Below are positions 11,479-52,094 of a stretch of DNA of 63,964 nt, one piece after another. This DNA comes from Chloroflexota bacterium (lineage in GTDB: Bacteria; Chloroflexota; Dehalococcoidia; SHYB01). The stretch's first letter is position 1. Each line of letters starts with the position of its first letter. The position numbers were made by a program, and so were the translations under genes. Under the pieces are notes generated by a model. It did not search any database, was not told the origin of the DNA, and worked only from the letters and a program-made list of their open reading frames with translations. The stretch covers positions 1 through 63,964 of the forward strand of contig JACZVV010000002.1 in the NCBI GenBank assembly GCA_022572465.1. The letters run 5' to 3'.

Positions 11479-11491
11479 GGGTCGCTCCTCG

Positions 11492-12712: not shown

Positions 12713-12764
12713 GGATTACCTCCACGGGCCACAGCAAGGGGGCCTTGATTGCGGGCCGCCAACG

Positions 12765-13979: not shown

Positions 13980-13981
13980 GC

Positions 13982-15277: not shown

Positions 15278-15504
15278 GGTAGTCCCACCAGAAAAGGCTC
15301 GCCCCATCTTATGGAGCGGGCTCAGGGGTGTCAAGCAAAGCAACGGGAGCCGCGCGTCCTCGCGGGAAGCACGGCGGGGATGAGCCACGGTCGTCGAACG
15401 CGTCCTTACGGACGGGCTCGCGCGGGCGGACGGGCTCGCGCGGGGCCTCCGCCCCGACTCGACGCTCCCTTGCGTTAGCAGGCCCGAACAGCCTACCATT
15501 TTGG

Positions 15505-16353
15505 ATGGCGTGGCTGAACCGGCCGCGATCGGAGCCTTCGTTGACGGTGAGCAAGGAGATATCGATCGATGGCGGGCGGGCCCACTACCTCGAGTTGGGC
15601 CGCGGCAGGCCGGTCGTCTTACTGCACGGGATCCCCGGCGACTCGCGCACCTGGCGTTACAACGTCGACGTGCTGGCCAGCCGGTTTCGAGTGCTGGCGT
15701 TGGACCTGCCCGGATGGGGACGAAGCGAGATGCCCCGCCGGTTCGCCTACTCCCTGGAAGACCTCGCACGGTTCGTCCACGGATTTTCGACGGCGCTGGA
15801 GCTCGAGCGGCCGTCGCTGATGGGTCTCCATCTGGGTGGCCTGGTGGCGCTGGAAACGGCCCTCCGGCATCCCGATCAGATGGGGCGCCTGGTCGTGATT
15901 GGGGCGCCGCTCCTTTCGACGGACACGCCGTTGCGGTTGGAGCCGCCGGGTAGTCTCCTGGGACGGCTGTGGTTCAAGCTGGGGTCCGCCCGCGCGGTGA
16001 AGCGGCTGATGCGGCGGGGTTTCCTGGACCGCGGCAACCTGACAGCAGACCTGGTCCCCGGCTACGCCCGGGCCCTGCGGCGGGGGCGAACCCTTCAGGG
16101 CATCGCTTTGGGCAACGCGGCGATCCGCGAACGGTGGCCCGAGCTGCGCCGTGACCTGGCGCGTCTCGCGACGCCGACCCTGGCGGTCTGGGGAGCGGAG
16201 GACGCCGTGACGTCGCTGGACAACGCTCGATTCCTGGTGGACACGGCGCCGGACGCGGCGCTTTTCGTGGTGGGACACACAGGCCACTGCTGCCACGAGG
16301 AGGCCCCGGCCGGATTCAATCGCGCCGTCATGGAGTTCCTGGGCGGCCGCTGA
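15505..16353 (+). CDS. Alpha/beta-hydrolase-fold protein with a non-canonical nucleophile elbow
   Basis: ORF 15328..16353, ATG 15505 (MAWLNRP) chosen. VVLLHGIPGDSRTW and the C-terminal GHTGHCCHEEAP fit the fold, but the elbow reads G-L-H-L-G-G instead of G-x-S-x-G. Confidence 0.65.
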   Translation: MAWLNRPRSEPSLTVSKEISIDGGRAHYLELGRGRPVVLLHGIPGDSRTWRYNVDVLASRFRVLALDLPGWGRSEMPRRFAYSLEDLARFVHGFSTALELERPSLMGLHLGGLVALETALRHPDQMGRLVVIGAPLLSTDTPLRLEPPGSLLGRLWFKLGSARAVKRLMRRGFLDRGNLTADLVPGYARALRRGRTLQGIALGNAAIRERWPELRRDLARLATPTLAVWGAEDAVTSLDNARFLVDTAPDAALFVVGHTGHCCHEEAPAGFNRAVMEFLGGR

Positions 16354-36465: not shown

Positions 36466-36478
36466 GGTCCTTCCTGAG

Positions 36479-36484
36479 TATAAT
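36479..36484. promoter_or_regulatory. Shared -10 box (TATAAT forward, TATACT on the reverse strand, offset 2 nt) in a 26-nt divergent spacer
   Basis: GAGTATAATCG read directly. The TATAAT ends 7 nt before ATG 36492. On the other strand TATACT ends 11 nt before the protease ATG at 36465. Confidence 0.4.
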
Positions 36485-36491
36485 CGCAGGT

Positions 36492-37247
36492 ATGTTCCGG
36501 CGGTTGAAAATCTGGAGTCGAGCGCTGGGCCGGCGACCCTTTCGCCGGTGGATGATTCCTCTTTTAGGTACGACGGCGCTGGCGGTCGCGGCTTGCGGCG
36601 GCGGCGATGCGGCGACGGCGACGCCGGCGGCGCCGGGCCTGTCGCCGAGGGACGTCTTGGACTCTTCGGCGGCGGCGATGGCCGAGGTCAGCTCGTTCCG
36701 CTACTCGCTGGAGAACTTCGGTGGGGAGACGCCGCTAACCGCCGGCCTGTCGATGCGGAGCGCCCGGGGCGTCATGGCCCAGCCGGACCAGCTGACGGCC
36801 CAGATCTCGGCCTCCTTTTCGGGATTTCGCGTGGAGGTGAACGTCATTAGCGTCGGCCAGCGGACGTACATGACCAACCCCATCACCGGCGCCTGGCAGA
36901 CCTTCGACACGGGACTGAGCCCCGTGGCGTTTTTCGACCCCGCCAAGGGCGTTAATCTCATTCTCCAGGGCATGATTCAGCCGTCGATCGGTGAGCCGAG
37001 CGAAGTGGATGGCGCTCCGGCCGTTCGCATCGTGGGCCAACTGCCGGCGGAGGCGGTGCAGTTCATCGCGGGTAGCTTCGCCGAGGGGTCGGTGCTGGAA
37101 GCCGAGCTCTTGATCGGCCAAGAGGATCGGCTGCTGAAACATGTCCGGCTGGCCGGGCGCATAACGGAGGGGGAGCCCGATGGGATGGTCAGGGTGCTGA
37201 CCTTCTCCGACTTCAACCAGACCTTCGATATCAAGCCGCCGGTCTAG
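36492..37247 (+). CDS. LppX/LprAFG-family lipoprotein (LprG-like)
   Basis: Inner ATG of ORF 36141..37247 (251 aa counted). Lipobox LLGTTALAVAAC-GGG. Aligns by eye with M. tuberculosis LprG: IVGQLPAEAVQFIAG vs ISGKVSAQAVNQIAP; C-terminal FDIKPPV vs VQVTKPPV. Confidence 0.7.
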   Translation: MFRRLKIWSRALGRRPFRRWMIPLLGTTALAVAACGGGDAATATPAAPGLSPRDVLDSSAAAMAEVSSFRYSLENFGGETPLTAGLSMRSARGVMAQPDQLTAQISASFSGFRVEVNVISVGQRTYMTNPITGAWQTFDTGLSPVAFFDPAKGVNLILQGMIQPSIGEPSEVDGAPAVRIVGQLPAEAVQFIAGSFAEGSVLEAELLIGQEDRLLKHVRLAGRITEGEPDGMVRVLTFSDFNQTFDIKPPV

Positions 37248-37265
37248 GGTTTCGCCCGGGACGCC

Positions 37266-38765
37266 ATGGCACGGTCGGGCGACCGTTCGGACCGCAACGC
37301 TTCTGCCTCCGGCGTCGTGCTCGCGCTGGCCGGCGCCGGCGTTTTCCTCGCTGCCCTGGACCAGACGTCCGTCGTCACCGCGCTCCCGGAGATCATCAAC
37401 GACATCGATCTCCCGGTGACCGATCTGGACCGCGGCGCCTGGATCATCACGGGCTACCTGGTGGGCTACACGGCGGCCATGCCCCTGGTGGGGCGGCTCT
37501 CCGACACCTACGGGCACCGCCGGGTCTACGTGGCGTCGATGCTGGTCTTCATGCTGGGCTCTGCCCTGGTCGCCGTCGGCGACAGCTTGGGCTGGCTCAT
37601 CGGCGCTCGGATCGTCCAGGCCGTGGGCGGCGGGGCGGTGGTGCCGGTGGCCATCGCCCTGGTGAGCCAGAACCTCCCCGAGTCCAGGCGCGGCATCGCC
37701 ATCGGAGCCGTCGTCGCCGTCGCCGAGGCGGGGGCCGTCCTTGGGCCGCTGTACGGCGGACTCATCATCGAACTGCTGGACTGGCGCTGGATCTTCTGGT
37801 CGAATCTTCCCGTGGGCGGCGTCATCATCCTGATGATGGCGGCGACGGTGAAGGATGATCGACCTTCGGCGGGCGCCGTCGACTACACCGGGGGGCTGCT
37901 TCTGGGCGCCAGCTTGGTTTTGCTGGCGCTGGGCCTCTCCGGCGACGCGCTGCTTGGTCCGGGCGTTGGGTGGCAAGCTGGATTCCTCGCCGCGGCGGGC
38001 GTATCGCTGCTGTCGTTTTTCTGGTGGGAGGCGAGGGCCACCGAACCCCTGCTGCCCTTGCATTTGTTGCGGCTGGTCCCGCTCGCCGCGGCAAACGGGG
38101 CCAACGTCCTCATCGGCGGCGCGCTGATCCTGGCGCTGGTGAACATTCCCCTGATGACGGACACCATCATGGGCAAGCAGCCCCTGGAGGGCGGGCTTCG
38201 ATTGCTCCGTCTGACGATGATGATCCCCATCGGAGCGGTGCTCGGCGGGTTGCTGTACCAGCGGTTCGGCTATCGTCTCCCGATGGTTACGGGGCTGACG
38301 CTCGCCGCTCTCGGCTTTGTTCTGCTGGGCCGGTGGCCATTGGACGTGGGCGACCCCAGGATGTCGCTGGAGCTGATGGTGGGAGGGCTGGGGTTCGGGC
38401 TGGTGGTGACTCCGGTGACGCTGGCGGCCCTGAACCATGTGGGTGAGGGGCAGCGCGCGACCTCGGCGGCCCTGGTTACGGTGATGCGGATGGTGGGCAT
38501 GATCGCGGGGCTTTCGGCCTTGAGCTCCTGGGGGCAGGACCGCTTCCAATCGCTGGTGGGCCGCATACCGCTCCCGGTCCAGCAGGCGGGAGAGGCCGAC
38601 GCGTTGTTCGAGGTGCGGTCCGCCGTGTACCAGGACCAGGCGCTGAACGCCGCGCTGACCTTCTTTCACGAGGTGTTCTTCGCGGCCGCCATCGTGTGCG
38701 GCGTGGCCCTGGTGGGCGCGTTCTTGATGGGGCGAAAGGGCGGGGAGGTGGTGGACCCGAGCTGA
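37266..38765 (+). CDS. MFS transporter, DHA2-like (~14 TM), P55/Rv1410c-like by context
   Basis: 499 aa; 18 nt downstream of the LprG-like gene; LDQTSVVTALPEI and GRLSDTYGHRRV motifs typical of drug:H+ antiporter MFS. Confidence 0.8.
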   Translation: MARSGDRSDRNASASGVVLALAGAGVFLAALDQTSVVTALPEIINDIDLPVTDLDRGAWIITGYLVGYTAAMPLVGRLSDTYGHRRVYVASMLVFMLGSALVAVGDSLGWLIGARIVQAVGGGAVVPVAIALVSQNLPESRRGIAIGAVVAVAEAGAVLGPLYGGLIIELLDWRWIFWSNLPVGGVIILMMAATVKDDRPSAGAVDYTGGLLLGASLVLLALGLSGDALLGPGVGWQAGFLAAAGVSLLSFFWWEARATEPLLPLHLLRLVPLAAANGANVLIGGALILALVNIPLMTDTIMGKQPLEGGLRLLRLTMMIPIGAVLGGLLYQRFGYRLPMVTGLTLAALGFVLLGRWPLDVGDPRMSLELMVGGLGFGLVVTPVTLAALNHVGEGQRATSAALVTVMRMVGMIAGLSALSSWGQDRFQSLVGRIPLPVQQAGEADALFEVRSAVYQDQALNAALTFFHEVFFAAAIVCGVALVGAFLMGRKGGEVVDPS

Positions 38766-38771
38766 GGCGCG

Positions 38772-39635
38772 TTACGTGTCTTGCCGGGAGCTCACCTGGA
38801 CACTGCGCTGAGCCTGCGTTGGACCCGGCGCCTGCCGGGCCAGCGCCGTCAGGGTCTCGCCGCCGGCGCTCGACGATATGAGATAGCTTTTGAAGGCCGA
38901 GACTTTCATCCAGGTGCCGGTGCTGGCGCCGGTGCTACTGAAGCCGGACGTCACGATGACGCCTTCTTCTGAAGTGTTGGTGAACCGGATGGTGTAGGTG
39001 CCGCCGGTGACGAGGTTGCCGGGCACGATCCCGTTGGCGGGACTGGTCGACCCGAAGGCGTCGAGCACCTGAGGACCGAGAGCGCCGGTGCCCTCGAAGA
39101 CCGCCAGCTCCCAGTCGGTGTCGGGCGCGAACGCCCAGTTGATTTCCAACGGAGTGTTGGTGCGGACGTTGGGCAGCAGATACTGGAAGCTGACTTCGGG
39201 GCCGAGGACCAACAGGCTGGTGGAGCTCTCGGGGTCGACCAGCGTCGGCCCGAAGAGCAGCGAGTCGTCGCCGGGTGGCTGCGAGATGGTGATCGTCGCC
39301 GAAATACCGTTGACGGTGACGCTGGGGATCGTGTAGCCAACGTCCAGCGCGTCTAGCCCCAGGGCCAGGTCCTTGATCACGGCCTCGATCCCCGCCTCGG
39401 CGGCGTAGTAGGCCTCTTCTCCTACCGTGTCGTCTTGGATCTGATCGATGCTGGACGAGAGGAAGGTCATCCAGGGCACGATGATCAGGATGCCCACGGT
39501 CAGCACCACCATCACGGCGGGCATGATGAAGCCGCGCTGGCCACCCAGACTCCGTGCGCTCCGTATCGGCGACGGGGCGCCGTGGCTATGGGAGCGTCGG
39601 GAGCATGAGGAACGCTTGAAGGGTCGTCGTGTCAT
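38772..39635 (-). CDS. PilX-like minor pilin
   Basis: GGQRG-FIMPAVMVVLTVGILII hydrophobic N-terminus and EEAYYAAEAGIEAVI (PilX_N-type [FY]YAAEAG motif). Start uncertain: ATG 39635 overlaps the upstream gene by 50 nt and gives a 35-aa Arg/Ser/His-rich leader; a CTG near 39548 would give a ~6-aa leader. Confidence 0.6.
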   Translation of the reverse strand: MTRRPFKRSSCSRRSHSHGAPSPIRSARSLGGQRGFIMPAVMVVLTVGILIIVPWMTFLSSSIDQIQDDTVGEEAYYAAEAGIEAVIKDLALGLDALDVGYTIPSVTVNGISATITISQPPGDDSLLFGPTLVDPESSTSLLVLGPEVSFQYLLPNVRTNTPLEINWAFAPDTDWELAVFEGTGALGPQVLDAFGSTSPANGIVPGNLVTGGTYTIRFTNTSEEGVIVTSGFSSTGASTGTWMKVSAFKSYLISSSAGGETLTALARQAPGPTQAQRSVQVSSRQDT

Positions 39636-40704
39636 AGGCAAGCATGCCGTCCGCGCCGGATTGCGTGTCGAACTGGACCGTTACTTCTATTTTATGCCCC
39701 GCCGCTAGGGTGTAGGCAACTGCGTTGCCCTTCAGCGTGACTTGGGTCCACCCGGAGGACGAGGTGAACCAGGCCAGGGCGCGGTTGCCGATGACCGTGG
39801 AGGCGTCGAGTCCGGGGTCGTAGTCTTTGAACGTAGCTATCGCCAGCATCTTGTGCCCGCTGGCGAACCCATCCGCCGCGCCCATGAGGAAGAGATTGAT
39901 CCGCCCGACGATGGTGATGGACTGGGCCAGCGCGTCGGAACGCCAGTCCTGGTGCTTGGTTTTGTCGGTCTCGTCCACGGCGGAGGAGAGGACGAGCGTC
40001 AGGCCCGCGTCGGAGTTACGGTCCTGGTCGTAGTTGTAGAGGGTCGTCGTGGTGGGAATGGTGCTGCTGAGGGGCAGGTTGACCCGAGCGTTGGTGGCCG
40101 CCACCGGCGGCGTGGGCTTGTTGTGCAAGAAGTAGTACTGGTACTCGATGGGGTTGGTCTGCTCGGGACGCAGAGACACCTCCAGGGTAGTCGATTGCTG
40201 GAAATCGTCCACCTGGTCGGCGCTCAGGTCCTCGCTGGTGACCGTGATGCTCACGGTCAGGAGACGCTCGGTCGAGGTGGGGATCAGCGGGTTGACCGTC
40301 GTCGTCACCGTGTACGAAACGTCGCCAACGACTTCGATCATGTGCACCAGAGGCAACAGGGGTTCGGCCACGTTGCCGATATACTCCTGGCGGTAGAGGA
40401 CCTTTTCCTCCCACAGGTACTCCACCCGGTGCCGCGTGGGCGGGAAGGCGCTGAAGTCCAGCCATCGAAAAATGCCGTACACGGGGGAGGTCCCGGCCTC
40501 AAACGACTCGGCGTTGGACACGTCCTGCTTGATGGTGGCGGATGCCGACCGGAGCTGATTGTGGATGCCCACCTCGCCCAGGCTGCGGCGTGGCGTCGTC
40601 TGGAACTGGCGCAGGGCCGCCACGATGCCGCCCAGGACCAGGGCGCCGATGGTCAAGGCGGTGATCAGCTCGACCGTGGAGAAGCCCCTGCCGTTCGGAA
40701 TCAT
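39586..40704 (-). CDS. Prepilin-type minor pilin, PilW-like
   Basis: MIPNGRG-FSTVELITALTIGALVLGGIVAAL is a class III signal (cleavage/methylation motif with Glu+5); 372 aa. Confidence 0.7.
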   Translation of the reverse strand: MIPNGRGFSTVELITALTIGALVLGGIVAALRQFQTTPRRSLGEVGIHNQLRSASATIKQDVSNAESFEAGTSPVYGIFRWLDFSAFPPTRHRVEYLWEEKVLYRQEYIGNVAEPLLPLVHMIEVVGDVSYTVTTTVNPLIPTSTERLLTVSITVTSEDLSADQVDDFQQSTTLEVSLRPEQTNPIEYQYYFLHNKPTPPVAATNARVNLPLSSTIPTTTTLYNYDQDRNSDAGLTLVLSSAVDETDKTKHQDWRSDALAQSITIVGRINLFLMGAADGFASGHKMLAIATFKDYDPGLDASTVIGNRALAWFTSSSGWTQVTLKGNAVAYTLAAGHKIEVTVQFDTQSGADGMLAYDTTTLQAFLMLPTLP

Positions 40705-40762
40705 TTCACGAGCTCGTTTAAGGTAAGCCGAAGCTAAGACGCGGTTGAGTCGATGGCGCTGG

Positions 40763-43700
40763 CTAATCGTCGTATATCCAGAAATTCGTGGTATTGTTGC
40801 CTCCCGGGGCGTAGAATGCGCCGTCCAGGTAGCTCAAGGCGCCGCCGGCACTCACATTTGCGGGCGTACTGGCCAGGACGATCCAAGTATTCCCAGTGAT
40901 GCTATAGCGCCAGAACGCTGTCGAGATGTCTCCGCGCAGCGCATAGACCGACAGGCCTTCGGTCGCCAGAGCGCCTCCCTGATCGACGGTCGCGGGGGTG
41001 GTCTCCAGGGCGGTCCAGGTGTCGAAGCCGACGTTGTACCTCCAGAATGTCGTCTGACCGCCGCCGCGGAGGGCGTAGACCTTGCCGTTGAGGTAGATGA
41101 GAGCGCCTCCCGCTCCGACCGTCAACGGCGTATCGGCCAGGCCGGTCCAGCTATCGCCGGCGATGCTGTACTTCCAGAACGCCTGCATGTTGGTGGCGGA
41201 ACCGCCGTCGCCTGTGAAGGCGTAGATGGTGTCCGATCCGTCCCAGGCGAGCGAGCCGCCCCAGCCAGCGTTGGTCGGGACACTAGCTTTGACCTCCCAC
41301 AGGCCGGAGCTGACGTTGAACCGCCAGAAATCCACTCGCTTGCCGCCGCGGAAGGCGTAGATGTATGCCGAGCCGCCGTCGTTGGCGTAGGCCAGCGCGC
41401 CGCCCTCCTTGACCGTGGCCGGAGCGTCGGCCACGGCGCTCCAGGTAGCGGAATCCACGGTGTACTTCCAGAACGTCTTTGGGGAGGAGCCCCTTAGCGC
41501 GTAGAAATCGGTCCCGTCCGTTGCCAGCGCTCCCCCTTTGCCGACGTTGGCGGGCGTGTTGGTGAGAGCGGTCCAGCTGGCCGATGGCCCCGCGGTCGGG
41601 AAGGGCGTGGGCGTGGGCGTCGGCGTCGGGGTTGGCGTGGGCGTGGGCGTCGGCGTGGGCGTGGGCGTGGGCGTCGGCGTTGGTGTCGGCGTTGACGTGG
41701 GGGTTGACGTCGCGGTTGGCGCCGGTGTGGGGGTGGGCGTTGGCGGCGGGAGAGTAGGAGTCCCGCAGCGCCAGAAGTTCGTCGCCAAATCGCCGCGGAG
41801 AGCGTAGTGGGCCCCGTTCAGATGGACGAGGCTCCCGCCATCGGCTATGTTGGCTGGCGTGTTTGTTTGAGTTAACCACGTGTTGGCAGGAACGCTGAAG
41901 CGCCAAAAGTCGTTGTTTCCGTCGCCTCGAAGGGCGTACAGCGAATCACCCACGCCTGACTGGATGAACGAACCACCGCCGACGACGTTGGCGGGGGCGT
42001 TCGGCAGCGTGGTCCACGAGTCGGGGCCGATTTCATATCGCCAGAAGGCGATGCTGCTGTTGCCGCGGAAGGCGTAGACGGATCCGGTCTCGTACGTGAG
42101 GGCGCCGCCTTTCTCGACGGTTCCCGGCGCATTGGCCAGGGTGGACCAACCGTCACCGGAGATGCTGTACTTCCAAAACGTCGTGGTGAAGCCGCCCCGA
42201 AAGGCGTAAATGCCGTCTGCACCGTCCCAGGCTAAAGCGCCTCCCCAATCGATATTCGCCGGAGTGGTCGCCATGGTCTCCCAGCTCCCGGAGCTGATGT
42301 TGAACCGCCAGAAGTCGTTACTCCCTTCGCCCCGGAGCGCGTAGATATAGCGGGCGCCGCCAACGGTGGCGTAGAGGAGGGACCCACCGTTGCCGACGTT
42401 CGCGGGCGCGATGGTTGAAGAGGACCAAGAGTTCGTGCTGATGGTGTACTTCCAGAAGTCCCGCGTCGTGTCGCCCCGGAACGCGAAGATGTTGATGAGG
42501 TCGGTGGCCAGGGAGCCGCCGTCATGGACGTTGGCCGGCGTGTTGGCCAGGGAGACCCACGAGCAGACCTCCACCGGCAACGGCGTCGCTGCCGGCGTAG
42601 GTGTCGGCCCAATCGTCGGCGTTGGGGTGGGCCCCGCGGTTGGCGTCGGCCCAGGTGTCGGCGTCGGCGTAGGTGTCGGCCCGATCGTCGGCGTAGGTGT
42701 CGGCCCAATCGTCGGCGTTGGAGTGGGCCCCGCCGTTGCCGTCGCTGTTGGAGCCGCCGTTGGAGTCGGCGTTGGCGGCGGAGGCACACCGGTGTTGAAC
42801 TTCTGGAAATCGGGCGTGTTGTTGCCGCTCAGGGCATAGACAGCGCCATTCAGGTGCGCCAGCGATCCACCCTGGCCCACGGTGGTCGGAGCGTCGTCCG
42901 CAGTCGACCAGGTACCGTCGGCGATGCTGAACTTCCAGAAGTCCGTCGTCGTGCCACCACGGAATGCGTAGACGAAGGTCCCGTCGGTGGTGAGACTGCC
43001 ACCCTCGTCCACCGCGGCGGGTGTATCCGGAAGGATGGTCCAGGTCCCGCTGCTGACGTCATATTTCCAGAACGAGGTGGAGCCGCCGCCGCCCATGGCG
43101 TAGAGGTTGCCCGAATCGTAGACCAGCGAGCCGCCGGCCCCGACGTCCCCCGGGGCGTCGGCCAGGCTGGTCCAGCTATCGTCGGCGATGCTGTACGCCC
43201 AGAACGCCTTCTTGTTGGTCCCCGCGCCGCCGTCGCCGGTGAAGGCATAGATGGTGTCCGCGCCGTCCCAGGCCAGGGACCCGCCCCAGCCGACCAAGCT
43301 GGGCGCCGCGGCCATTGGTTCCCAGAGGCCGGAGCCGATGTCGAAGCGCCAGAAGTCCAAAGTACCGATGCCGCCGAAGGCGTAGAGGTAGCCTGCGCCG
43401 CCATCGGTGGCATAGGTCAGAGCGCCGCCCTCGTTCACGTCGGCAAGCGCGTCGTTCAGTATGCTCCACGTGCCGCCGGCCACGAAGTACTTGTAGAGCG
43501 CCTTCTTGTTGGCGCCGCCGCCCCAGTTGCCGCCGAAAGCGTAGAGGTCGACGCCGTCGGTCGTCAGGGCGCCGCCCTTGCCGATTTTGTTGGGCGCGTT
43601 GGCGGAGACTACCCAACCCGGAGGAACGGGTTTTGGCGGCAGCGGCTCCGGAATCCCGGGGTTGAACTTCCAGAAATCGGGCGTGTTGTTGCCGCGCAGG

Positions 43701-44935
43701 GCATAGACAGCGCCATTGAGGTGGGCCAGCGACCCTCCTTGTTTCACGGTCGCCGGGGCATCGTCCGCGGCCCCCCAGGACTCTTCCGAGATGCTGAACT
43801 GCCAGAAGTCGCGCGTCGCGTTGCCCCGGAAGGCGAAGACGGAGGTGCCGTCGGTGGCGAGCCTGCCGCCCTGGTTGACCGCTTTGGGCGTTGGCGGCAG
43901 GAAGGACCAGGCGCCCGAGCTGACGTTGTAGCGCCAGAATTCTTTCCTGTTGCCGCCGCGCAGGGCGTAGAGGTTGCCCGAATCGTAGACCAGCGCGCCG
44001 CCGGCCTTGACGGTCCCCGGGGCGTCGGCCAGGCCGGTCCAGCTATCGCCGGCGATGCTGTACTTCCAGAACGCCTTGTTGTTGGTGCCCTGGCCGCCGT
44101 CGCCGGTGAAGGCGTAGATCGTATCCGAGCCGTCCCAGGCCAGGGAGCCGCCCCAGCCGGCCTTGCTGGGCGCCGCCGCCTTGAGCTCCCAGAGGCCGGA
44201 GCCGATGTTGAAGCGCCAGAAGTCCAGCTGCTCGCCGCCGCGGAGGGCGTAGAGGTAGCCCGAGCCGCCGTCGGTGGCGTAGGCCAGTGCGCCGCCCTCT
44301 TTGACGTCGGCGGGCGCGTCGGCCAGTGTGCTCCACGAGTTGCTGGAGACGCGGTACTTGTAGAAGGCCTTCTTGTTGGCGCTGGCGCCCCAGTCGCCTC
44401 CGAAAGCGTAGAGGTCGACGCCGTCGGTCGCCAGGGAGCCGCCCTTGCCGATGTTGTTGGGCGCGCCGGCGGGGTTGGGAACTACCCAACCCGATGGAAC
44501 GGGCGTTGGCGTCGGCGTCACGTCGGGTATGGGCGTCGGCGCCGGCACTCCCTCGGCCGCCTGGATCGCCGGCAGGTCCCGGGTCTTGTAGGCCGTGAGC
44601 ACGGTGTCGCCGGCGTCGTAGGATACCGTAACCGTGATCTCCTGGAGCAAGCCGGGCTCCAGGATTATCCCGGCGATGGTGATGGTGTAGTCGGTGGAAG
44701 GCGGCGCGATGGTGGCGTAGTCGATCGGCTCGGCGTAGGGCTGGTTCTTGATCGACTCGATTTGGGAGCGGGCCAGTTGAAGGGCGGTGGTGTCTTGCTT
44801 GACCAGGTCGGTGCTGCGGATGCCTAGAGCAAGGGAGCTGAGCAGTGCGGTGAGGACCAGACCGACCAAAGCGGTGCCGATCATGATCTCCACCAGGGTG
44901 AGACCGCGCTGGCCGGCGGGCCTGTCTCTACTCAT
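40763..44935 (-). CDS. Giant PilV/GspI-like pseudopilin fused to four Kelch-like six-bladed beta-propellers via PT linkers
   Basis: ORF 40763..44974 (GTG); ATG 44935 gives [33 protein letters not shown] ~130-aa pilin domain ([13 protein letters not shown]) is followed by four ~270-aa modules. Each module is six repeats of W..LA.AP..V..GGAL..DG...YA[FL]RG.....FW[KR][YF]. The modules are separated by Pro/Thr linkers. Confidence 0.8.
41582..41764 (-). repeat. Imperfect hexanucleotide (GGCGTS)n tandem repeat encoding a (TP)n linker
   Basis: Plus-strand GGCGTGGGCGTGGGCGTCGGCGTCGGGGTTGGCGTGGGCGTGGGCGTCGGCGTGGGCGTGGGCGTGGGCGTC... encodes ..[34 protein letters not shown]. Coordinates derived from residue counts, +/-6 nt. 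Confidence 0.8.
42566..42790 (-). repeat. PT linker with a repeated 27-nt unit (PTPTIGPTP)
   Basis: Encodes [68 protein letters not shown]. The unit GGTGTCGGCCCAATCGTCGGCGT recurs three times on the plus strand. Confidence 0.75.
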
Positions 44936-45141
44936 GGCGCTTTGCTGTCTTTCAGGGCCGGCCCCCGACGCCACCCGTCGAGCGTCAAGTCGGGCCCAAC
45001 CTCAGAGAGGGGAGCCGGTGACCCTACAAGTACGACCTTCCCGGTTGGGTAGATGATTCGCGGGCCCGGGCGGCGACGAACCTTTCGGGCGCGCCGTTCT
45101 TGGCCGTGCCGGCGACTTACCGAAATTTCACAACCAGGTTC

Positions 45142-45159
45142 AATACTATTCTAATACTA
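45142..45159. promoter_or_regulatory. Direct repeat AATACTA-N4-AATACTA (11-bp period) in an AT-rich island
   Basis: Plus strand CAATACTATTCTAATACTAAATCA, directly 3' of the pilin-propeller stop (45162-45164) and ~190 nt upstream of the giant gene. Local GC is far below the window average. Confidence 0.4.
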
Positions 45160-45161
45160 AA

Positions 45162-46739
45162 TCAAAACCTCCAGAAGTCTTTCATATCGCCGCCGCGGAA
45201 CGCATAGATGTCTCCGCCGACGAAGGTCAGGGCTCCTCCATCGTTGACGTTGGCGGGCGTGTCGGCAAGGTTGGTCCAGCTATTAGCGCCGACGTCGTAT
45301 CTCCAGAAACGGTTGTTGCCGTTGCCGCGCAGGCCGAAGATGAAGGTCCCGTCGGTGGTCAACCCGCCGCCGCCCTTGACGAACTCCGGCGCGTCCGACA
45401 GGGAGCTCCAGGAGTCCGAGCCCACGTTGTACTTCCAGAAATCCTTGGTGTTGTTGCCCCGGAGGGCGTAGAGGGCGCCCGAGAGGAAGACCAGGGCGCC
45501 GCCGTCCCGGACGTTCTCCGGAGCGTCGGCCGCCGTGGACCAGCTATCGCCGGAGATGCTGTACTTCCAGAATTCTTTGCGGTTGTCGCCCCGGAACGCG
45601 TAGATGGTGTCCGCGCCGTCCCAGGCCAGGGCGCCGCCCCAGTACACGTTCTCCAGCGCGTCGGCTTGGGTCTCCCAGATCCCGCTGGTGATGTTGAACC
45701 GCCAGAAGTCCCGTTTGCGGTCCCCGCGGAAGGCGTAGACGTAAGGGCTGCCGCCATCGGTGGCGAAGGCCAGGGCCCCGCCTTGCTTGACGTTGTCCGG
45801 CGTGTTGGCCAGTGAGGCCCAGGTCCCGCTGGAGACGGTGAACTTCCAGAATTCTTTGGTATCGTCGCCCCGTAGCCCATAAACGTCGGTGCCGTCGTTG
45901 GTCAGGGCGCCGCCGCTGTTCACGTCCTCGGGGGCGTCCGCCAGCACCGTCCACGAGGGGATCGGCGTGGCGGTGGGCGTAGCCGTCGGCGTGGGCGTGG
46001 CGGTGGGCGTGGCCGTCGGCGTGGGCGTCGGCGGCGTGCCGGTGGGCGTGGCCGTGGCCACTACGGTTCCGCCGCCGATGGCGGCGTCGAAGGCCGCGTA
46101 CCAGACGCCGCTGGACTCGTAAGTTGGGACAACCAGCACGTTGAACAGCACGACCCACCGGAACTCGCCGTCGGTGATGCCGTTGCCGTTGGTGTGGTCG
46201 GTGTCGATGTCGGCGTTGGCCTCGGCGGCGGTCTCGGGGAGCCGTTTGAGATAGATGTTCTCTTCGCCGAGCATCGGATGGGCGGTTCCGGTCTTTTCGT
46301 TCTCGGGTCCGGCGACGGTGCCGAAGGCCTCGTTGGAGAGGAGCCCCATCCAGACCAGGCCGGCGTCGATGTCGGCGGTGGCGGCCGCGCCGCCGGTGGC
46401 GGGGCCCACGACGTGCTTGTCGATCCTCGGATTGTCGGGGGTGTTGGGGTCGAAGATGGTGACGCTGAGCTCCAGCTCCCCCGGTTGGCCGTCCTCGGTG
46501 GGCAGAAGGCGCTGCGCCGACTCGACGCCCCAACGGTTGGAGCTATCGGGCCCTCGGTGCTTGTCGGTGGAGAAGGCATCCACCGCCTGCTGCAAGAGCC
46601 GTTGGTCTTGCAGCAGGGCTGCCGCGCGGCCCCGGGCCAACAGCCCGACCACGCTGGGAATGGTGATGGCGGCCAGGATCGCGATGATGGCCACGACCGT
46701 CACCACCTCGATGAGCGTGAATCCTCGTTGGTTTCGCAT
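45162..46739 (-). CDS. Type IV pilin fused to one Kelch-like six-bladed beta-propeller
   Basis: MRNQRG-FTLIEVVTVVAIIAILAAITIPSV. A ~225-aa pilin domain paralogous to 46840..47535, then the linker [32 protein letters not shown], then six repeats (e.g. [44 protein letters not shown]). Confidence 0.85.
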   Translation of the reverse strand: MRNQRGFTLIEVVTVVAIIAILAAITIPSVVGLLARGRAAALLQDQRLLQQAVDAFSTDKHRGPDSSNRWGVESAQRLLPTEDGQPGELELSVTIFDPNTPDNPRIDKHVVGPATGGAAATADIDAGLVWMGLLSNEAFGTVAGPENEKTGTAHPMLGEENIYLKRLPETAAEANADIDTDHTNGNGITDGEFRWVVLFNVLVVPTYESSGVWYAAFDAAIGGGTVVATATPTGTPPTPTPTATPTATPTPTATPTATPIPSWTVLADAPEDVNSGGALTNDGTDVYGLRGDDTKEFWKFTVSSGTWASLANTPDNVKQGGALAFATDGGSPYVYAFRGDRKRDFWRFNITSGIWETQADALENVYWGGALAWDGADTIYAFRGDNRKEFWKYSISGDSWSTAADAPENVRDGGALVFLSGALYALRGNNTKDFWKYNVGSDSWSSLSDAPEFVKGGGGLTTDGTFIFGLRGNGNNRFWRYDVGANSWTNLADTPANVNDGGALTFVGGDIYAFRGGDMKDFWRF

Positions 46740-46777
46740 GGGCGCACTGCCGACCTCAGGGTGTACCCGCAGCTATC

Positions 46778-46820
46778 GAAAAAGAGAGGGCGCCCCTAAC
46801 TCCAGCCGGGGGCGCCCTCT
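46778..46820 (-). terminator. Rho-independent terminator after the 231-aa pilin gene
   Basis: Minus strand AGAGGGCGCCCC-(12 nt loop)-GGGGCGCCCTCT followed by CTTTTTCG. Perfect 12-bp stem. 20 nt after the stop, 38 nt before the next ATG. Confidence 0.8.
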
Positions 46821-46839
46821 TCGGTTCCCAATGTTCGCC

Positions 46840-47535
46840 TTAGGGGAAGGCGTCGTTGTACCCGACGTACCACTTGCTGTCGGTGACGCTCTTGTAGGCG
46901 GGCTTGATCTGGCCGTTGTGGAGCACGATCCAGGAGTAGGTCCCCTCGGTCCTGCCGTTGTCGTTCGTTGGGTCGTCGTCGGTATCGGTGTTGATCTCGG
47001 CAGCCGACTCGGGGAACTCCAGCAGGTACTCGCCCGTTTCGCCGCTCTGCGGGTGGGCGTCGCCGGACTCGTTCTGCTCGCCGCCCGAGCCCACGTTGTC
47101 CGACGGCTCGTTGACCAGGAGCCCGATCCATAGCGCCGCCTCTTCGATGTCGCTGTCGACGGCGTCGGCGCCCACGGGGGGGCCCGTCACGTGTTTCATG
47201 ACCTGGAAGTTGTCGCGGTCGGTGAAGTCGCCGTCTGTCAGGCTCGGGCTCAGCTCCACGTCGCCGACCTCGCCATCCTCGGTTGCGAACAGCCGCTTGT
47301 TACCGGTCAACCCCCAATTGAAGGTGACGTCCGGCCCCTTGTGCTTGTCGGTCTTGAACGCGTCCGACACCTGCTGGAGCTGCTTTTCGTCGGTCAGCAG
47401 CGCGCTTCTCTCACCCGAGCTAAGGAAGGTGAGGACGCTAGGGATGGCAACGGCGGCCAGCACGCCCAGGATCGCAATGGCGACGATAATCTCGATGAGG
47501 GTGAAACCCCTCTCTTGTCGCTTGAAATTGCGCAT
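46840..47535 (-). CDS. Type IV pilin (candidate major pilin), acidic, Cys-free
   Basis: MRNFKRQERG-FTLIEIIVAIAILGVLAAVAIPSV; 231 aa; own promoter candidate upstream and a strong terminator downstream. Confidence 0.85.
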   Translation of the reverse strand: MRNFKRQERGFTLIEIIVAIAILGVLAAVAIPSVLTFLSSGERSALLTDEKQLQQVSDAFKTDKHKGPDVTFNWGLTGNKRLFATEDGEVGDVELSPSLTDGDFTDRDNFQVMKHVTGPPVGADAVDSDIEEAALWIGLLVNEPSDNVGSGGEQNESGDAHPQSGETGEYLLEFPESAAEINTDTDDDPTNDNGRTEGTYSWIVLHNGQIKPAYKSVTDSKWYVGYNDAFP

Positions 47536-47692
47536 GGCTGCCCCATCCTTGTTGTCTTTAGCTTGCGTTTCGTTGGGTTTTCGGTCTGCTGGTTCGCCCG
47601 TTATGGGTGGCGGCGGACGGCGGGGCTGCCCGGCAGGGATTGGCTCTTCCGAGCTCCCCGCCGCCGTTCGCCATCTCGAGCAAACATGCTTT

Positions 47693-47721
47693 ATTTTACC
47701 GCAGTTTCAAACCTTTGTCAT
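47693..47721 (-). promoter_or_regulatory. Sigma-70-like promoter candidate (ATGACA-17-TAAAAT) for the 231-aa pilin
   Basis: Read on the minus strand in the 244-nt spacer between the two pilin genes; ~150-nt 5' UTR; AAGGA before the ATG. Confidence 0.4.
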
Positions 47722-47779
47722 GGATGCAGGCCAGCGACAGTGTGCACGGGGCAGCACCGCCGCCGGCCTCACTCAGCTC

Positions 47780-48445
47780 TTACTTGCCGTAGTCGGCGTC
47801 GTTCTTCAGCACGATGACGTTGTTGTTCTTGTCCACGTTCCAGACGAAGAAATCGTCGGCGCTGCCGTCGATGGCAAAGTCCACATGGATCTCGCAGGTC
47901 TCGCCGGCCGGGGTGCAACCGGTGATGGTAAGGTCCACTGTGTTGTTCCCGCCTTCCGTGATGTCGATGCTGTCCGGGGCCGTGAAGGTGCCGTGTTGCG
48001 GGGCACTCTTGATGAAGTCCGGCACCAGAAGGGCGGCGAAGTCAATGGAGCCGAAACAAGCGTCGATGGAAGCGTCGCGGCCCGCGCCGGCGCACGTCAC
48101 TTCCGTGCCGGCCGGTTTCAAGGACCCGTCGGATATGCCGGTGTCGTCGATGAAGATGATGATGATCCCGTCCCCATTGGTGTCGCCGCCTACGATGGCC
48201 GTGCCGGGGTTCGAGCTCTCAGAGACGGGGAAGGTGCCCGGGTTCACCGACTCGAACCGGGCCACGGCGGTGTCGGTGTTCTTCATGTCGCCGTCTTTAC
48301 CCGACGTACGGGCTTCGCCCGAGGTGCCGGTGACGGAAGCGGCGACGATGGTGGTCAGCAACGCAAGGATCGTGACCACAACGGTCATCTCCAGAAGGGT
48401 GAACCCCCTCTGGCTTCGAAAAAGCCTGCCTATCAGTTTTCGCAT
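47780..48445 (-). CDS. Type IV pilin with two Cys pairs
   Basis: ORF 47780..48469 (TTG); ATG 48445 follows GGGAGG and gives MRKLIGRLFRSQRG-FTLLEMTVVVTILALLTTIVAA. Cys pairs: VTCAGAGRDASIDAC and GCTPAGETC. Confidence 0.8.
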   Translation of the reverse strand: MRKLIGRLFRSQRGFTLLEMTVVVTILALLTTIVAASVTGTSGEARTSGKDGDMKNTDTAVARFESVNPGTFPVSESSNPGTAIVGGDTNGDGIIIIFIDDTGISDGSLKPAGTEVTCAGAGRDASIDACFGSIDFAALLVPDFIKSAPQHGTFTAPDSIDITEGGNNTVDLTITGCTPAGETCEIHVDFAIDGSADDFFVWNVDKNNNVIVLKNDADYGK

Positions 48446-48748
48446 CGATTGCCTCCCATTCGCAATCAACTTGGGGCGATCTGCTCGCCCGATGTCCTCC
48501 GGCTACGCTATTGCTTGAGTGCTCACGTTACATCTTCACCTCCGGCCAAGGGGTAATGAGCCGCATTTGATGTCCAGTATGCCCCCCGTGCCGGTCGTGC
48601 ACATCCCCCATACGGGTGATTTTTGGGAGTAGCCGATGATTAGCCCGGATCAGGGGAAAACCCCCAATGGGCGGCGCGGTTGCATTCTTGCGCGGCTGCG
48701 GGCATACTGCAACCATCGGTCAAACGCTTTCGATGAAGGGAGACGCTC

Positions 48749-49912
48749 ATGCTGGACATTCCGACGAAACCGTACGGAACGTTGGACCTGATCTCGGTCG
48801 ACGATCACATCATCGAGCCGGGCCACGTTTGGACCTCCCGCGCGCCTTCGAAACTGAAGGACCGGGCGCCCAAAGTGGTGGTCTCCGACGATGGGACCGA
48901 GATGTGGAAGGTGGAGGACCGGCTCAGCCCGAACGTCGGTCTGTCCACCATGGCCGGGCGATCGTACGAGGAGTTTACAATCAAGGCCCAGAATTTCAAG
49001 GACATGCGCCCGGGATGCTACGACGCCAAGGAGCGGATCAAGGACCTGGACCTGGATGGCGTCAAGGTGTCGTTCTGTTTTCCGGCGGTGCCGGGGCTGG
49101 GCGGCGAGTCGTTCATGAACATCAAGGACGTCGAGCTTCGCGACTGGGCGATCTCGGCCTACAACGACTACCTGATCGACGAGTTCCAGCCGGTGGCGCC
49201 GGGCCGGCTCATGGGGCTGGGGATCCTGCCGCTGACGGAGCCGGAGAAGGCCGTCGCCGAGATGCGCCGCATCGCGAAGCTGGGCGTCAAGGGGCTTTCG
49301 ATACCTTTCTGGTTCCACGAATCGGTGGAGGGCGCGAAGCCGCTGGTCGACTCGGTCTACGATCCGATCTGGACGGCGTGCGAAGAGCTGGACATGCCGA
49401 TCAACCTGCACATCGCGGCGGGACGCGGCGCCGGCGGCATGAGCGCGCTCTCCAGCGGCATTCCCGGCATGGCCGAGGCGTTCGTCACGGCGGCGCCGCT
49501 GACCAACTTCGACATCCTGAGCCAGATCATCTGGACGGGCATGCTGGACCGGCATCCCAAGCTGAAGGTCATCTCCAGCGAGGGCGGCATCGGCTGGGTG
49601 CCCTACTTCCTCGAGCGCAGCGACTACACCTACGAGAAGCACCGGTACTGGACGCACTCGTCGCTCAAGCAGAAGCCATCGGAGTTCTTCCACCGCCAGT
49701 GCTACGTCTGCTTCATCCACGACGAGGCCGGCGTCTTCGCGCGGCACCTCATCGGCGTCGACAACATGATGTGGGAGTCCGACTACCCGCACACCGACAC
49801 CACCTGGCCGAACAGCCACGACTGGGTGGAGAAGTCGATGCCGGGGATCCCCGCCGATGAGCGCCAGAAGATCACCTACGGCAACGCGACGCGGGTCTAC
49901 AACCTGAACTGA
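48749..49912 (+). CDS. Amidohydrolase-2 (ACMSD-like metal-dependent hydrolase/decarboxylase) family
   Basis: ISVDDHIIEPGHVW N-terminus and WESDYPHTDTTWPNS C-terminal block; AAGGGAG RBS; 387 aa. Confidence 0.8.
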   Translation: MLDIPTKPYGTLDLISVDDHIIEPGHVWTSRAPSKLKDRAPKVVVSDDGTEMWKVEDRLSPNVGLSTMAGRSYEEFTIKAQNFKDMRPGCYDAKERIKDLDLDGVKVSFCFPAVPGLGGESFMNIKDVELRDWAISAYNDYLIDEFQPVAPGRLMGLGILPLTEPEKAVAEMRRIAKLGVKGLSIPFWFHESVEGAKPLVDSVYDPIWTACEELDMPINLHIAAGRGAGGMSALSSGIPGMAEAFVTAAPLTNFDILSQIIWTGMLDRHPKLKVISSEGGIGWVPYFLERSDYTYEKHRYWTHSSLKQKPSEFFHRQCYVCFIHDEAGVFARHLIGVDNMMWESDYPHTDTTWPNSHDWVEKSMPGIPADERQKITYGNATRVYNLN

Positions 49913-50078: not shown

Positions 50079-52094
50079 GTGCGCCAGTACCGCTACTCGT
50101 TCTGGGATGGCACGCAAGAGCCGTTCGACCTTCACCCGGACGAGGTGATGGACGAGCTCGCCGACGACCTGTTTAACGACAGCAGCGTCATGCGCGCGCT
50201 CCAGCGCCTGATGCAACGCGGGATGACCAACCAGGCCGGTCAGCGCACCAAGGGCATTCGCGATCTTCTGGAGCAGCTGAAACAGCGGCGCCGGCAGGAG
50301 ATGGAGCGGTACGACCTCGGCTCGGTCCTCAACGACATCAAAGAGCGGCTGCAAGACATCGTCGATACGGAGCGGGAAGGGATCGACCGGCGGCTTCAGG
50401 AGGCGCGTCAGCGGGTGGCGCAAGATCCGTCGCAGGCGTCGCTGCTGCAAACGGTGCAGAACCTGGCCGACCGCCGCCGCGACACGCTGGACCAGCTCCC
50501 CGACGACCCGGCGGGCCAGATCAAACAGCTGAGCGACTACGACTTCATGGACGCCGAGGCGCGGCAGAAGTTTCAGGAGCTCATGGACGAGCTCAAGCAG
50601 AAGATGATGGAGCAGTACTTCAAGGACATGCAGAGCTCGCTCCAGGGGATGACGCCGGAGCAGATGCAGGGCATGAAGCAGATGCTCAAGGACCTGAACC
50701 AGATGCTGGACCAGCACTCGCGGGGTCAGCTGAGCGACGAGCAGTTCCAGCAGTTCATGCAGCGGTACGGCGAGATGTTCGGGCCCAATCAGCCGGCGAA
50801 CATGGAAGAGCTGATGGAGCAGATTCAGGAGCGGATGGCCCAGGCGCAGTCGCTGCTGGACAGCATGCCCGAGGAGACGCGGCAGCAGCTCCAGGACCTG
50901 ATGGCATCACTGATGGACGACGAGATGCGGCAAGAGCTGGGCATGCTCGCCGCGATGATGGACGACATGTACCCGCCGGACGAGCTCAGCCGGCAGTACC
51001 CTTTCAGCGGCCAGGAAGAGATCTCGCTGGACGAGGCCATGCGGGTCATGGACCAGCTTCAGCAGATGGAGAATCTCGAGGCCCAGCTGAAAGACATCCG
51101 AACGCCGGACGACCTGGAGCGAGTCGACGAGGAGAAGCTGGCGGAGCTTCTGGGCGAGGAGGCCAAGCGGACGTGGGAAGAGCTGAAGAAGCTGATGAAA
51201 CGCCTGGAGGAGGCCGGATACATCCGGCGCAAGGGCGACAGGCTGGAGCTGACGCCTCGGGGCATTCGTAAGATCGGCCAGAAGGCCGTCCGCGATATCT
51301 TCGCCCAGCTCAAGAAGGACCGCATTGGGAGCCACGAGACGAGATACCGGGGCATGGGCGGCGAGAACACGGGCGAGACCAAGCCCTGGGAGTTCGGCGA
51401 CGATTTCGCCGTCGACCTGCAAAAGTCGCTGATGAATACGGTGCGGCGGGAGGGCGTGGGGACTCCGCTGCGCATGCGGGTGGATGACTTCGAGGTCGAG
51501 CGGGTGGAGCACCGCACGGAGGCGGCGACGTGCCTGCTGCTTGACCGCAGCCGGTCGATGGGCTACTACGGCAACTTCACGGCGGCTAAGAAGGTCGCCA
51601 TCGCGCTCCACTCCCTCATCAGCAGCCAGTATCCCCGAGACGCCCTCTACATCATCGGGTTCTCCGACGTCGCGGTGGAGTTCAAAGGCGAAGATCTGCC
51701 GGAGCTGAGCTGGGACACCGGAATTTCGGGCACCAACATGCACCACGCGTTCATGATGTCGCGCAAGCTTCTGGCCAAGCACAAGGGCTGCACTCGTCAG
51801 ATCATCATGGTGACCGACGGCGAGCCTACGGCCCACCTGGACCACGGCGTGCCTTACTTCAGCTATCCGCCTTCGCCGCAGACCATCCGCGAGACGCTGA
51901 AGGAGGGCCGGCGGTGCGCCCAGGAAGGGATCGTCATCAACACTTTCATGCTGGAGAACAGCTATCCGCTGATCGATTTCATCAACCTCTTGTCGCGGGT
52001 CAACCGCGGCCGGGCCTTCTACGCCTCGCCCGACAAGCTCGGTGAATACGTATTGGTCGACTTCCTGAACAACCGCCGGACTCGAGTCGCGTAG
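50079..52094 (+). CDS. von Willebrand factor A (VWA) domain protein with a long Gln/Glu/Met-rich coiled-coil region
   Basis: GTG start. MIDAS DxSxS motif in CLLLDRSRSMG, later MVTDGEPTA. The N-terminal 350 aa are heptad-like (QQLQDLMASLMDDEMRQELGML...). Confidence 0.75.
   Translation: MRQYRYSFWDGTQEPFDLHPDEVMDELADDLFNDSSVMRALQRLMQRGMTNQAGQRTKGIRDLLEQLKQRRRQEMERYDLGSVLNDIKERLQDIVDTEREGIDRRLQEARQRVAQDPSQASLLQTVQNLADRRRDTLDQLPDDPAGQIKQLSDYDFMDAEARQKFQELMDELKQKMMEQYFKDMQSSLQGMTPEQMQGMKQMLKDLNQMLDQHSRGQLSDEQFQQFMQRYGEMFGPNQPANMEELMEQIQERMAQAQSLLDSMPEETRQQLQDLMASLMDDEMRQELGMLAAMMDDMYPPDELSRQYPFSGQEEISLDEAMRVMDQLQQMENLEAQLKDIRTPDDLERVDEEKLAELLGEEAKRTWEELKKLMKRLEEAGYIRRKGDRLELTPRGIRKIGQKAVRDIFAQLKKDRIGSHETRYRGMGGENTGETKPWEFGDDFAVDLQKSLMNTVRREGVGTPLRMRVDDFEVERVEHRTEAATCLLLDRSRSMGYYGNFTAAKKVAIALHSLISSQYPRDALYIIGFSDVAVEFKGEDLPELSWDTGISGTNMHHAFMMSRKLLAKHKGCTRQIIMVTDGEPTAHLDHGVPYFSYPPSPQTIRETLKEGRRCAQEGIVINTFMLENSYPLIDFINLLSRVNRGRAFYASPDKLGEYVLVDFLNNRRTRVA

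Follow-up and report, generated by a model that had tools for sequence, protein, structure and literature searches.

A conserved six-gene prepilin cassette in Chloroflexota with predicted Kelch propellers on two of its pilins

Results

Six consecutive prepilin genes on one strand

We analysed a 63,964-bp NCBI contig of a Chloroflexota bacterium (GenBank assembly GCA_022572465.1, contig JACZVV010000002.1), hereafter the window, which contains 47 open reading frames (ORFs). On its minus strand, between positions 38772 and 48469, six ORFs follow one another, each with a class III (prepilin) N-terminus and a hydrophobic alpha1 segment; they are designated G1 to G6 in the order of transcription (Table 1). 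An earlier examination, hereafter the sequence-only reading, had described six successive minus-strand prepilin genes here, and the ORFs lie where it had placed them. A six-frame scan of the full 64-kb window for the pattern Gly-hydrophobic-x-x-x-Glu/Ala followed by a hydrophobic stretch returned the G1 to G6 ORFs and no others.

A short leader ending in Gly, a hydrophobic residue at +1 and Glu at +5 were found in G1 to G5, and G6 has Ala at +5; the hydrophobic stretch after the motif is present in all six proteins. In a check that the sequence-only reading had proposed, the Pfam profile N_methyl (PF07963; cut-off 21.2 bits) recognised G1, G2 and G3 above its cut-off and not the other three: G4 scored just under it, G5 reached 14.4 bits, and G6 gave no match. 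For G5, however, all seven members of its family match N_methyl, with a best E-value of 9.7e-8.

The GC content of G1 to G6 (0.65-0.67) falls within that of the window (0.61-0.69), their third-position GC (GC3) of 0.83-0.89 is of coding type, and the ORFs are uninterrupted. Together with the conservation of the cassette in related Chloroflexota described below, this agrees with the earlier view that the cluster is native. Also as the sequence-only reading had reported, no match to T2SSE, T2SSF, Peptidase_A24 or any other Pfam pilus-assembly or secretin family was detected among the 47 window ORFs.

Table 1 Features of the prepilin cassette and its surroundings; a slash marks the predicted cleavage site
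Feature	Position (nt)	Strand	Length or residues	Leader junction	Remarks
G1 prepilin	ORF 47780-48469; from ATG 48445, 47780..48445	minus	221 aa	MRKLIGRLFRSQRG/FTLLE (QRG/FTLLE)	N_methyl 31.2 bits
G2 prepilin	46840..47535	minus	231 aa	MRNFKRQERG/FTLIE	N_methyl 37.7 bits
G3 modular pilin	45162..46739	minus	525 aa	MRNQRG/FTLIE	N_methyl 35.4 bits; Kelch_6 49.6 bits
G3 pilin module	46065-46739	minus	aa 1-225
G3 Pro/Thr linker	45957-46064	minus	36 aa
G3 six-bladed Kelch propeller	45165-45956	minus	aa 262-525
G4 modular minor pilin (candidate)	ORF 40763-44974; from ATG 44935, 40763..44935	minus	1390 aa	QRG/LTLVE	Kelch_6 144.7 bits; N_methyl 21.1 bits
G4 small pilin module, putative GspI/PilV class	44540-44935	minus	~125 aa
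G4 predicted propellers 1-4	43664-44488, 42797-43621, 41765-42562, 40772-41578	minus			Six blades each
G4 long Pro/Thr linkers	42563-42796, 41579-41764	minus
G5 minor pilin (candidate)	39586..40704	minus	372 aa	MIPNGRG/FSTVE	PilW/GspJ class assigned from operon position
G5 C-terminal beta-rich domain	39589-40152	minus	~aa 185-372
G6 PilX/GspK-type minor pilin (candidate), Glu5-less	ORF 38772-39641 (38772..39545)	minus		..GGQRG/FIMPA	alpha1 helix and jelly-roll beta-sandwich
MFS_1 transporter	37266-38765	plus			Downstream neighbour of the cassette
ORF at the position where relatives have an LppX_LprAFG lipoprotein gene	36141-37247				Downstream neighbour of the cassette
InhA-like_MAM metalloprotease	33871-36465	minus	864 aa		Downstream neighbour; own Pro/Thr-rich linker
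Sigma-70-like promoter match ATGACA-17-TAAAAT	47693..47721	minus			G1-G2 gap; hint, consensus match only
Weak terminator-like hairpin followed by a T-run	46785..46797	minus			Just 3' of G2; hint, consensus match only

Kelch propellers on G3 and G4

G2 is likely the major pilin, and its alpha1 region matches the Myxococcus PilA and GspG models. G1, for which the source annotation begins at the ATG given in Table 1, is a pilin that is possibly GspH/FimU-like or else a second structural pilin. Along its full length (222 aligned residues), the pilin module of G3 shares 47% identity with G2; G3 is a full-length G2 paralogue to which one propeller is joined through a Pro/Thr linker. In an AlphaFold2 model built on a 59-sequence alignment, G3 has an N-terminal helix at residues 9-57 and a propeller at a predicted local distance difference test (pLDDT) score of ~98. 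Searched against the PDB with Foldseek, the propeller returned six-bladed Kelch domains at the top (the designed SAKe6, NS1-BP, Keap1 and KLHL12), with TM-scores of 0.7-0.79 and a root-mean-square deviation of 2-3 Å over ~260 residues; by sequence, the N-terminus of G3 aligns with alpha1 helices from GspG and from major pilins of known structure.

G4 joins a small pilin module, in which Gly-1 and Glu5 are invariant among the aligned orthologues, to four domains that its sequence identifies as six-bladed Kelch propellers. Kelch_6, Kelch_3 and Kelch_1 exceed their cut-offs in both G3 and G4, and Kelch-type blades within the window are confined to these two genes. We counted six blades in G3 and 24 (4x6) in G4, 30 in total, with the consensus W..la.aP..V..GGaLa.dg...YAfrG.....FW.y. 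The five propellers share 48-74% pairwise identity in protein and 64-82% in DNA, and those of G4 are 49-55% identical to that of G3. The linkers preceding the four G4 propellers measure 17, 14, 78 and 62 residues, with Pro and Thr making up 50-82%. The sequence-only reading had anticipated the one-plus-four arrangement with about 30 blades, the repeat pattern, the Pro/Thr linkers (14-78 aa across the two proteins), the Kelch profile matches and, as borne out by the G3 model with its Keap1/KLHL-like fold, the propeller structure of the repeats. The "PilV-like" label of G4 is weak, being drawn solely from weak GspI/ComGE/PilV profile scores, and a homologue search with the G4 pilin module returned a single match.

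Candidate minor pilins G5 and G6

The N-terminal half of G5 is pilin-type and its C-terminal half is beta-rich; Glu5 is invariant in its seven-member family. Many proteins of Chloroflexota contain the C-terminal half as well. Weak PepX_C matches were also obtained. Comparison of G5 and its family with PDB sequences gave no relative beyond alpha1-helix matches. When the GTDB representative genomes were scanned with the G5 family, the C-terminal domain was found in other proteins only, many of them archaellum-type, and no full cassette was recovered.

The start codon of G6 is uncertain. The source annotation places it at ATG 39524 (Met40, giving 250 aa), which drops the conserved QRG/FIMP leader; a possible CTG start lies six to seven codons upstream of the Gly in both the window and the related locus L001 (related loci are given L numbers and homologous proteins P numbers). 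L001 and L003 both keep the motif [QE]RG[FY]IMP, upstream of the annotated Met, in their protein sequences. An ATG in L003 yields the leader MRRPEGRASAADGERG/YIMP, and the L002 orthologue starts with M/FLMP. In a set of 1.84 billion clusters, 128 representatives belong to the G6 family, with homology beginning at ORF residues 31-35. Because the leader motif is conserved and the family homology starts there, yet Glu5 is lacking, we regard G6 as real but atypical. PilX_N matches six of 45 G6 relatives (best E-value 4.8e-5) and does not match G6 itself. Some members of the family are long and Kelch-bearing, such as P0184 (1599 aa). The AlphaFold2 model of G6, built with 45 relatives, has a pLDDT of 94.7 and consists of a 55-residue helix (7-61) followed by a beta-sandwich, for which Foldseek returned weak jelly-roll matches only (CBM36, CBM6, CUB and GOLD, TM-score at most 0.48) in the PDB.

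Assembly evidence for the four-propeller gene

The same-species short-read assemblies all break within G4, a 15-billion-protein collection includes the exact products of G1, G2, G5 and G6 but not those of G3 or G4, and nt 42521-43263, within G4, are the sole part uncorroborated by an independent assembly; each of these observations would fit a four-propeller ORF made of misjoined repeats in a decayed, non-functional operon. However, two scaffolds of one independent sample match the window on either side of the gap, at 99.0% over 48798-43264 and 99.35% over 42520-38500, and G3 is intact at 99% identity in the independent assemblies L039 and L040. The ORFs are uninterrupted with a coding-type GC3 of 0.84-0.89, and the propeller modules are 18-36% apart at the DNA level, which argues that they are diverged duplicates and not collapsed repeats. 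An orthologue of G4 in L003, 47% identical, likewise carries four propellers. Because of this orthologue and the flanking 99% scaffold matches, the four-propeller architecture is credible.

A conserved cassette with a variable propeller load

The survey of related assemblies that the sequence-only reading had proposed recovered the cassette in L001, L002 and L003. On the 3.6-Mb ENA contig L001, six genes in identical order lie between shared neighbours (Amidohydro_2 on one side; MFS_1, LppX and an InhA-like protease on the other), with pairwise identities to G1 to G6 of 31, 55, 55, 55, 44 and 43%. There the G3 orthologue bears one propeller, and that of G4 lacks propellers, being a pilin of 206 aa that has an acidic tail. 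In L003, a Pro/Thr linker of ~150 aa precedes the single propeller of the G3 orthologue; the G4 orthologue, from an assembly of 2x coverage, is called as two ORFs of 788 and 564 aa that lie 4 nt apart because of an apparent frameshift, and together these hold the pilin module and four propellers. The L002 cassette is without any Kelch domain. The cassette is therefore conserved gene for gene across close relatives, and its propeller load varies from zero to four copies. At L003:1343-5784, Transposase_mut fragments occur shortly upstream of the cassette, and the G3 orthologue is called there as a 238-aa fragment only.

Several related loci adjoin assembly genes. In L002, a prepilin peptidase gene (A24_N_bact and Peptidase_A24) lies upstream, with a two-component pair between it and the cassette; in L031, from a Frankiaceae metagenome-assembled genome (MAG), pilins are followed by an A24 peptidase; and in L030, from a Dehalococcoidales MAG, T2SSE (with an MshEN domain) and T2SSF immediately precede V-like, pilin and G5-like genes. 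The Chloroflexi MAG GCA_022567755.1 (L038) has a trio of V-like, W-like and X-like genes in which the propeller sits on the W-like (G5-type) pilin P0002, named a prepilin-type protein by NCBI. The P0091 locus (L037) was also examined and is not a pilin cassette.

We tallied the N-terminal types among 84 G3 homologues, counting the G6-type by eye. Canonical GFTLIE-type N-termini were present on seven Kelch-bearing proteins and on one without Kelch, G6-type, Glu5-less N-termini on ~11, archaeal class III signals on four and a leaderless N-terminal helix on ~10; in ~20, a signal-peptide-like N-terminus is followed by a conserved TWTQTSxxDF motif. N_methyl exceeds its cut-off in the Kelch homologues P0002, P0004, P0018 and P0023. 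In other Chloroflexota, the same Kelch subfamily occurs on G5-type pilins (P0002, P0004, P0018 and P0020) and on G6-type proteins (P0016, P0039, P0184 and others).

The close Kelch homologues with non-canonical N-termini include P0025, P0056, P0066, P0074, P0019, P0021, P0024, P0030, P0031, P0035 and P0051, some having archaeal-type class III signals (ERGVSxVIG, with DUF7289) and others a leaderless hydrophobic helix like that of ArlF/G-like proteins, suggesting that the propeller is a cargo on several filament types. The Dehalococcoidia archaellum locus L010:6239-10453 encodes an archaellin (Arch_flagellin, E-value 2.8e-24) and ArlF/G-like genes, including a 571-aa ArlF/G-like protein that bears the G5 C-terminal beta-rich domain (TATTLYNYD motif). 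The G5 domain is also found on FlaF/G-like N-termini at L005:9461-11140 and L008:9452-11113; accessory domains are therefore shared between bacterial-type minor pilins and archaellum accessory proteins in Chloroflexota. In P0012 (918 aa, on a 4.6-kb ENA contig), A24_N_bact (E-value 1.7e-22) is followed after ~590 residues by a propeller of the same Kelch subfamily; no catalytic Peptidase_A24 domain was detected in this protein, which may be a genuine fusion or an artefact of gene calling.

Genomic surroundings and putative signals

The rest of the window consists of chromosomal and metabolic genes, among them UvrC, CarAB, enolase, CoA-transferase III, Amidohydro_2 and luciferase-like oxygenases. 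Two of its housekeeping proteins, enolase and CarB, fall into clusters at 90% identity or more with proteins assigned to Chloroflexi/Chloroflexota MAGs. Four CoA-transferase family III paralogues stand in tandem at 10267-15769, and two genes each for Amidohydro_2, luciferase-like monooxygenases and enoyl-CoA hydratases occur elsewhere, giving the window a paralogue-rich catabolic content. Just upstream of the cassette, two Amidohydro_2 genes flank a gene (50079-52094) for a 671-aa protein that has a VWA_2 domain at its C-terminus and a long helical region of high charge, an arrangement also seen in L039. The downstream neighbours (33871-38765) are kept alongside the cassette in L001, L003, L033 and L034, which may reflect either a functional link or close kinship alone. 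The promoter-like site in Table 1 is the sole one in 38500-48900, where 1.0 is expected by chance. With this site before G2 and the terminator-like hairpin after it, the arrangement would fit a separately tuned major pilin gene, both signals being consensus matches only.

Discussion

A probable type IV filament with modular pilins

We think it probable, though well short of settled, that the six genes constitute the pilin operon of a type IV filament, probably of a monoderm Chloroflexota, in which two modular pilins display Kelch propellers. This interpretation is favoured because class III signals are found solely on six adjacent ORFs, G2 and G3 are paralogues, the propeller fold was confirmed and the cassette is conserved. 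It is further favoured by the related cassettes that adjoin homologues of PilD (L002 and L031) or PilB/PilC (L030), by the PilX_N-type, Glu5-less N-terminus of the G6 family, and by the occurrence of the same Kelch subfamily on other pilin classes. For the display of the propellers, the precedent is that of modular pilins, for which tip display and adhesion have been proven experimentally (PMC8179133).

In the model that we propose, the prepilin peptidase and assembly genes would be encoded elsewhere in the genome, and the prepilins would be cleaved after Gly. The tip complexes of the type II secretion system (T2SS) and of type IVa pili are formed by GspIJK and PilVWX, with the Glu5-less subunit at the apex. 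Here, G4 (I/V-class), G5 (J/W-class) and G6 (K/X-class, Glu5-less and at the apex) would prime the filament and remain as a tip complex, and because of this the four-propeller chain of G4 would hang from the filament tip, extending on up to ~170 residues of Pro/Thr linker in total. G2 would polymerise into the shaft, and G3 would enter the filament rarely, or close to the tip, its tethered propeller remaining on the outside. Since its pilin module is major-type and its linker flexible, G3 may sit in the shaft, a location that Raynaud et al. left open for modular pilins (PMC8179133). The propellers would serve as multivalent binding modules (adhesins) for a glycan, protein or particle ligand, taking the role of the separate PilY1/PilC propeller; such a binding role is probable by analogy with PilB/PilC of Streptococcus sanguinis and with PilY1.

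Several observations weigh against this interpretation. An assembly ATPase, a platform protein and a prepilin peptidase were not found within the 64-kb window, and a wall or S-layer might hinder the passage of a subunit as large as 1390 aa. The V/W/X class assignments of G4 to G6 are weak, depending on gene order, size, the loss of Glu5 and weak profile matches. They were not confirmed through homology to solved minor pilins, because sequence and profile searches of the PDB with G5, the G5 family, the G6 family and the G4-type pilin module yielded alpha1-helix matches or nothing, and Foldseek gave no minor-pilin match in the PDB for the G6 model. AlphaFold2 modelled the pilin head of G3 at low confidence. 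The Kelch fold also occurs in enzymes, mutarotases among them, and weak NanM/mutarotase profile matches were obtained; an enzymatic function, though still conceivable, was not adopted, the matches being weak and far under the cut-off.

Alternative explanations

The class III signal and alpha1 segment may instead provide a processed membrane anchor or short stalk, displaying the propellers in the manner of a bindosome, with no long pilus. The lack of assembly genes in the window, the very bulky cargo of four propellers per subunit, and the archaeal-type filament systems that Chloroflexota also have, together with the same Kelch subfamily on archaeal-type class III N-termini, would all accord with such an arrangement. 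In the archaeal bindosome, too, a class III signal places a binding protein (sugar-binding) at the cell surface, whereas its signal type and machinery differ from the bacterial GFTLIE-type signals and full pilin set seen here. We judge this explanation unlikely, as the graded pilin set is complete, with one subunit that lacks Glu5 and an unadorned one of 231 aa that resembles a major pilin, a composition typical of filament-forming systems, and PilB/PilC homologues adjoin related cassettes.

A pseudopilus of a T2SS-like secretion machine or a Com-like DNA-uptake machine, with propellers that bind substrate or cargo, would account for the weak NCBIfam matches to GspG, GspH, GspI and ComGE and for a gene order like that of gspG-K, in which a major-like subunit is followed by a small, a larger and a Glu5-less subunit, as here. 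However, the best scores are far under the family cut-offs (GspG, 34-36 against 88.85 bits; GspH, 27 against 80; GspI, 17 against 44), which argues that G1 to G6 are not T2SS pseudopilins, and the model of G6 has a beta-sandwich in place of the GspK-like alpha-domain. Com pilin operons begin with comGA and comGB, and Com pilins are small; comGA and comGB are absent from the window. No secretin or other T2SS gene is present in the window either, and Chloroflexota are described as monoderm (PMC12488501). On balance, a pseudopilus is quite improbable here. That G4 is an assembly artefact within a decayed operon is the least credible explanation, and we set it aside on the assembly evidence presented above.

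Relation to known systems

With a type IV filament as the favoured interpretation, the closest known relatives of G3 and G4 are the modular pilins, in which a non-pilin module is grafted onto a pilin; more than 1,200 such proteins with 264 architectures were catalogued by Raynaud et al. in 2021 (PMC8179133). G3, with pilin, 36-aa linker and propeller, and G4, with pilin and four propellers, have this composition. The N_methyl-Kelch architecture (IPR012902-IPR006652) is itself listed, with one protein, in Dataset S1 of that study (PMC8179133), and several further N_methyl and Kelch proteins are found in public databases. The suggestion of the sequence-only reading that the cluster is a candidate new display system was therefore too strong, because the principle is established and the architecture was already catalogued. 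Its statement that no characterised pilin carries a covalently fused Kelch propeller held: in the literature searched, we found no paper characterising a Kelch-bearing pilin or combining "Kelch" with "minor pilin". The Kelch gene treated in a cable-bacteria paper that mentions pili is an unrelated, actin-linked one, and no pilin-propeller fusion was found in a giant-gene preprint.

Like G3 and G4, PilB (with a vWA module) and PilC (with a lectin module) of S. sanguinis combine a class III signal and pilin module, a linker and a module that is not pilus-specific, and their modules are presented by the filament for adhesion (PMC8179133). The proteins described here differ from them in that the module is a six-bladed Kelch propeller, the host belongs to Chloroflexota and the Pro/Thr linkers are long; in addition, two pilins of one operon bear the module, and G4, with four tandem copies, reaches 1390 aa against an extreme of 860 aa among modular pilins (PMC8179133). 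The PilY1/PilC adhesin on FimU-PilV-PilW-PilX resembles our proposal in placing a beta-propeller at the tip through minor pilins of one operon, with G6 being Glu5-less like PilX. By contrast, PilY1/PilC is not a pilin but a protein apart, whose propeller forms a family of its own (IPR008707), whereas the propellers here are Kelch-type and covalently part of the pilins; a Pfam profile search gave no PilC/PilY1-family match in any of the six proteins. CofB of enterotoxigenic Escherichia coli and TcpB of Vibrio cholerae, both large initiator minor pilins from type IVb pili, also join a pilin module to extra beta-rich domains through a flexible linker and are located at the tip (PMC8179133), but their extra domains are family-specific beta-repeats or beta-sandwiches and not propellers, and each system has a single such subunit.

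Three features are undescribed so far: the presence of propellers on two pilins from the same operon, a tandem array of four propellers on a small minor pilin, and one Kelch subfamily fused to every pilin class across Chloroflexota. The last of these raises the tentative possibility, to which we give rather less than even weight, that all kinds of type IV filament subunits share this subfamily as an interchangeable cargo, as propellers occur on paralogues of major pilins, on minor pilins of the V, W and X classes, on pilins of archaeal type and on proteins with a leaderless N-terminal helix like that of the archaellum ArlF/G-like proteins of L010. If so, a common ligand would be implied, and both the shaft (through G3) and the tip (through the four-propeller chain of G4) would be decorated with propellers, a pattern unseen in solved type IV filaments.

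Significance

Type IV pili are thought to gain functions either by recruiting a separate tip adhesin such as PilY1/PilC or by grafting a module onto a pilin. The cassette described here grafts a propeller, the fold class of PilY1, straight onto a major-pilin paralogue and, by prediction, fourfold onto a minor pilin. Automated annotation misses parts of such an operon, as the leader of G6 is left unannotated and the protein collection lacks the exact G3 and G4 products. The cassette would provide a test case for the limit on pilin cargo passing through a monoderm envelope, for whether a modular pilin can occupy the shaft in addition to the tip, and for what the abundant, mostly uncultured environmental Chloroflexota attach to.

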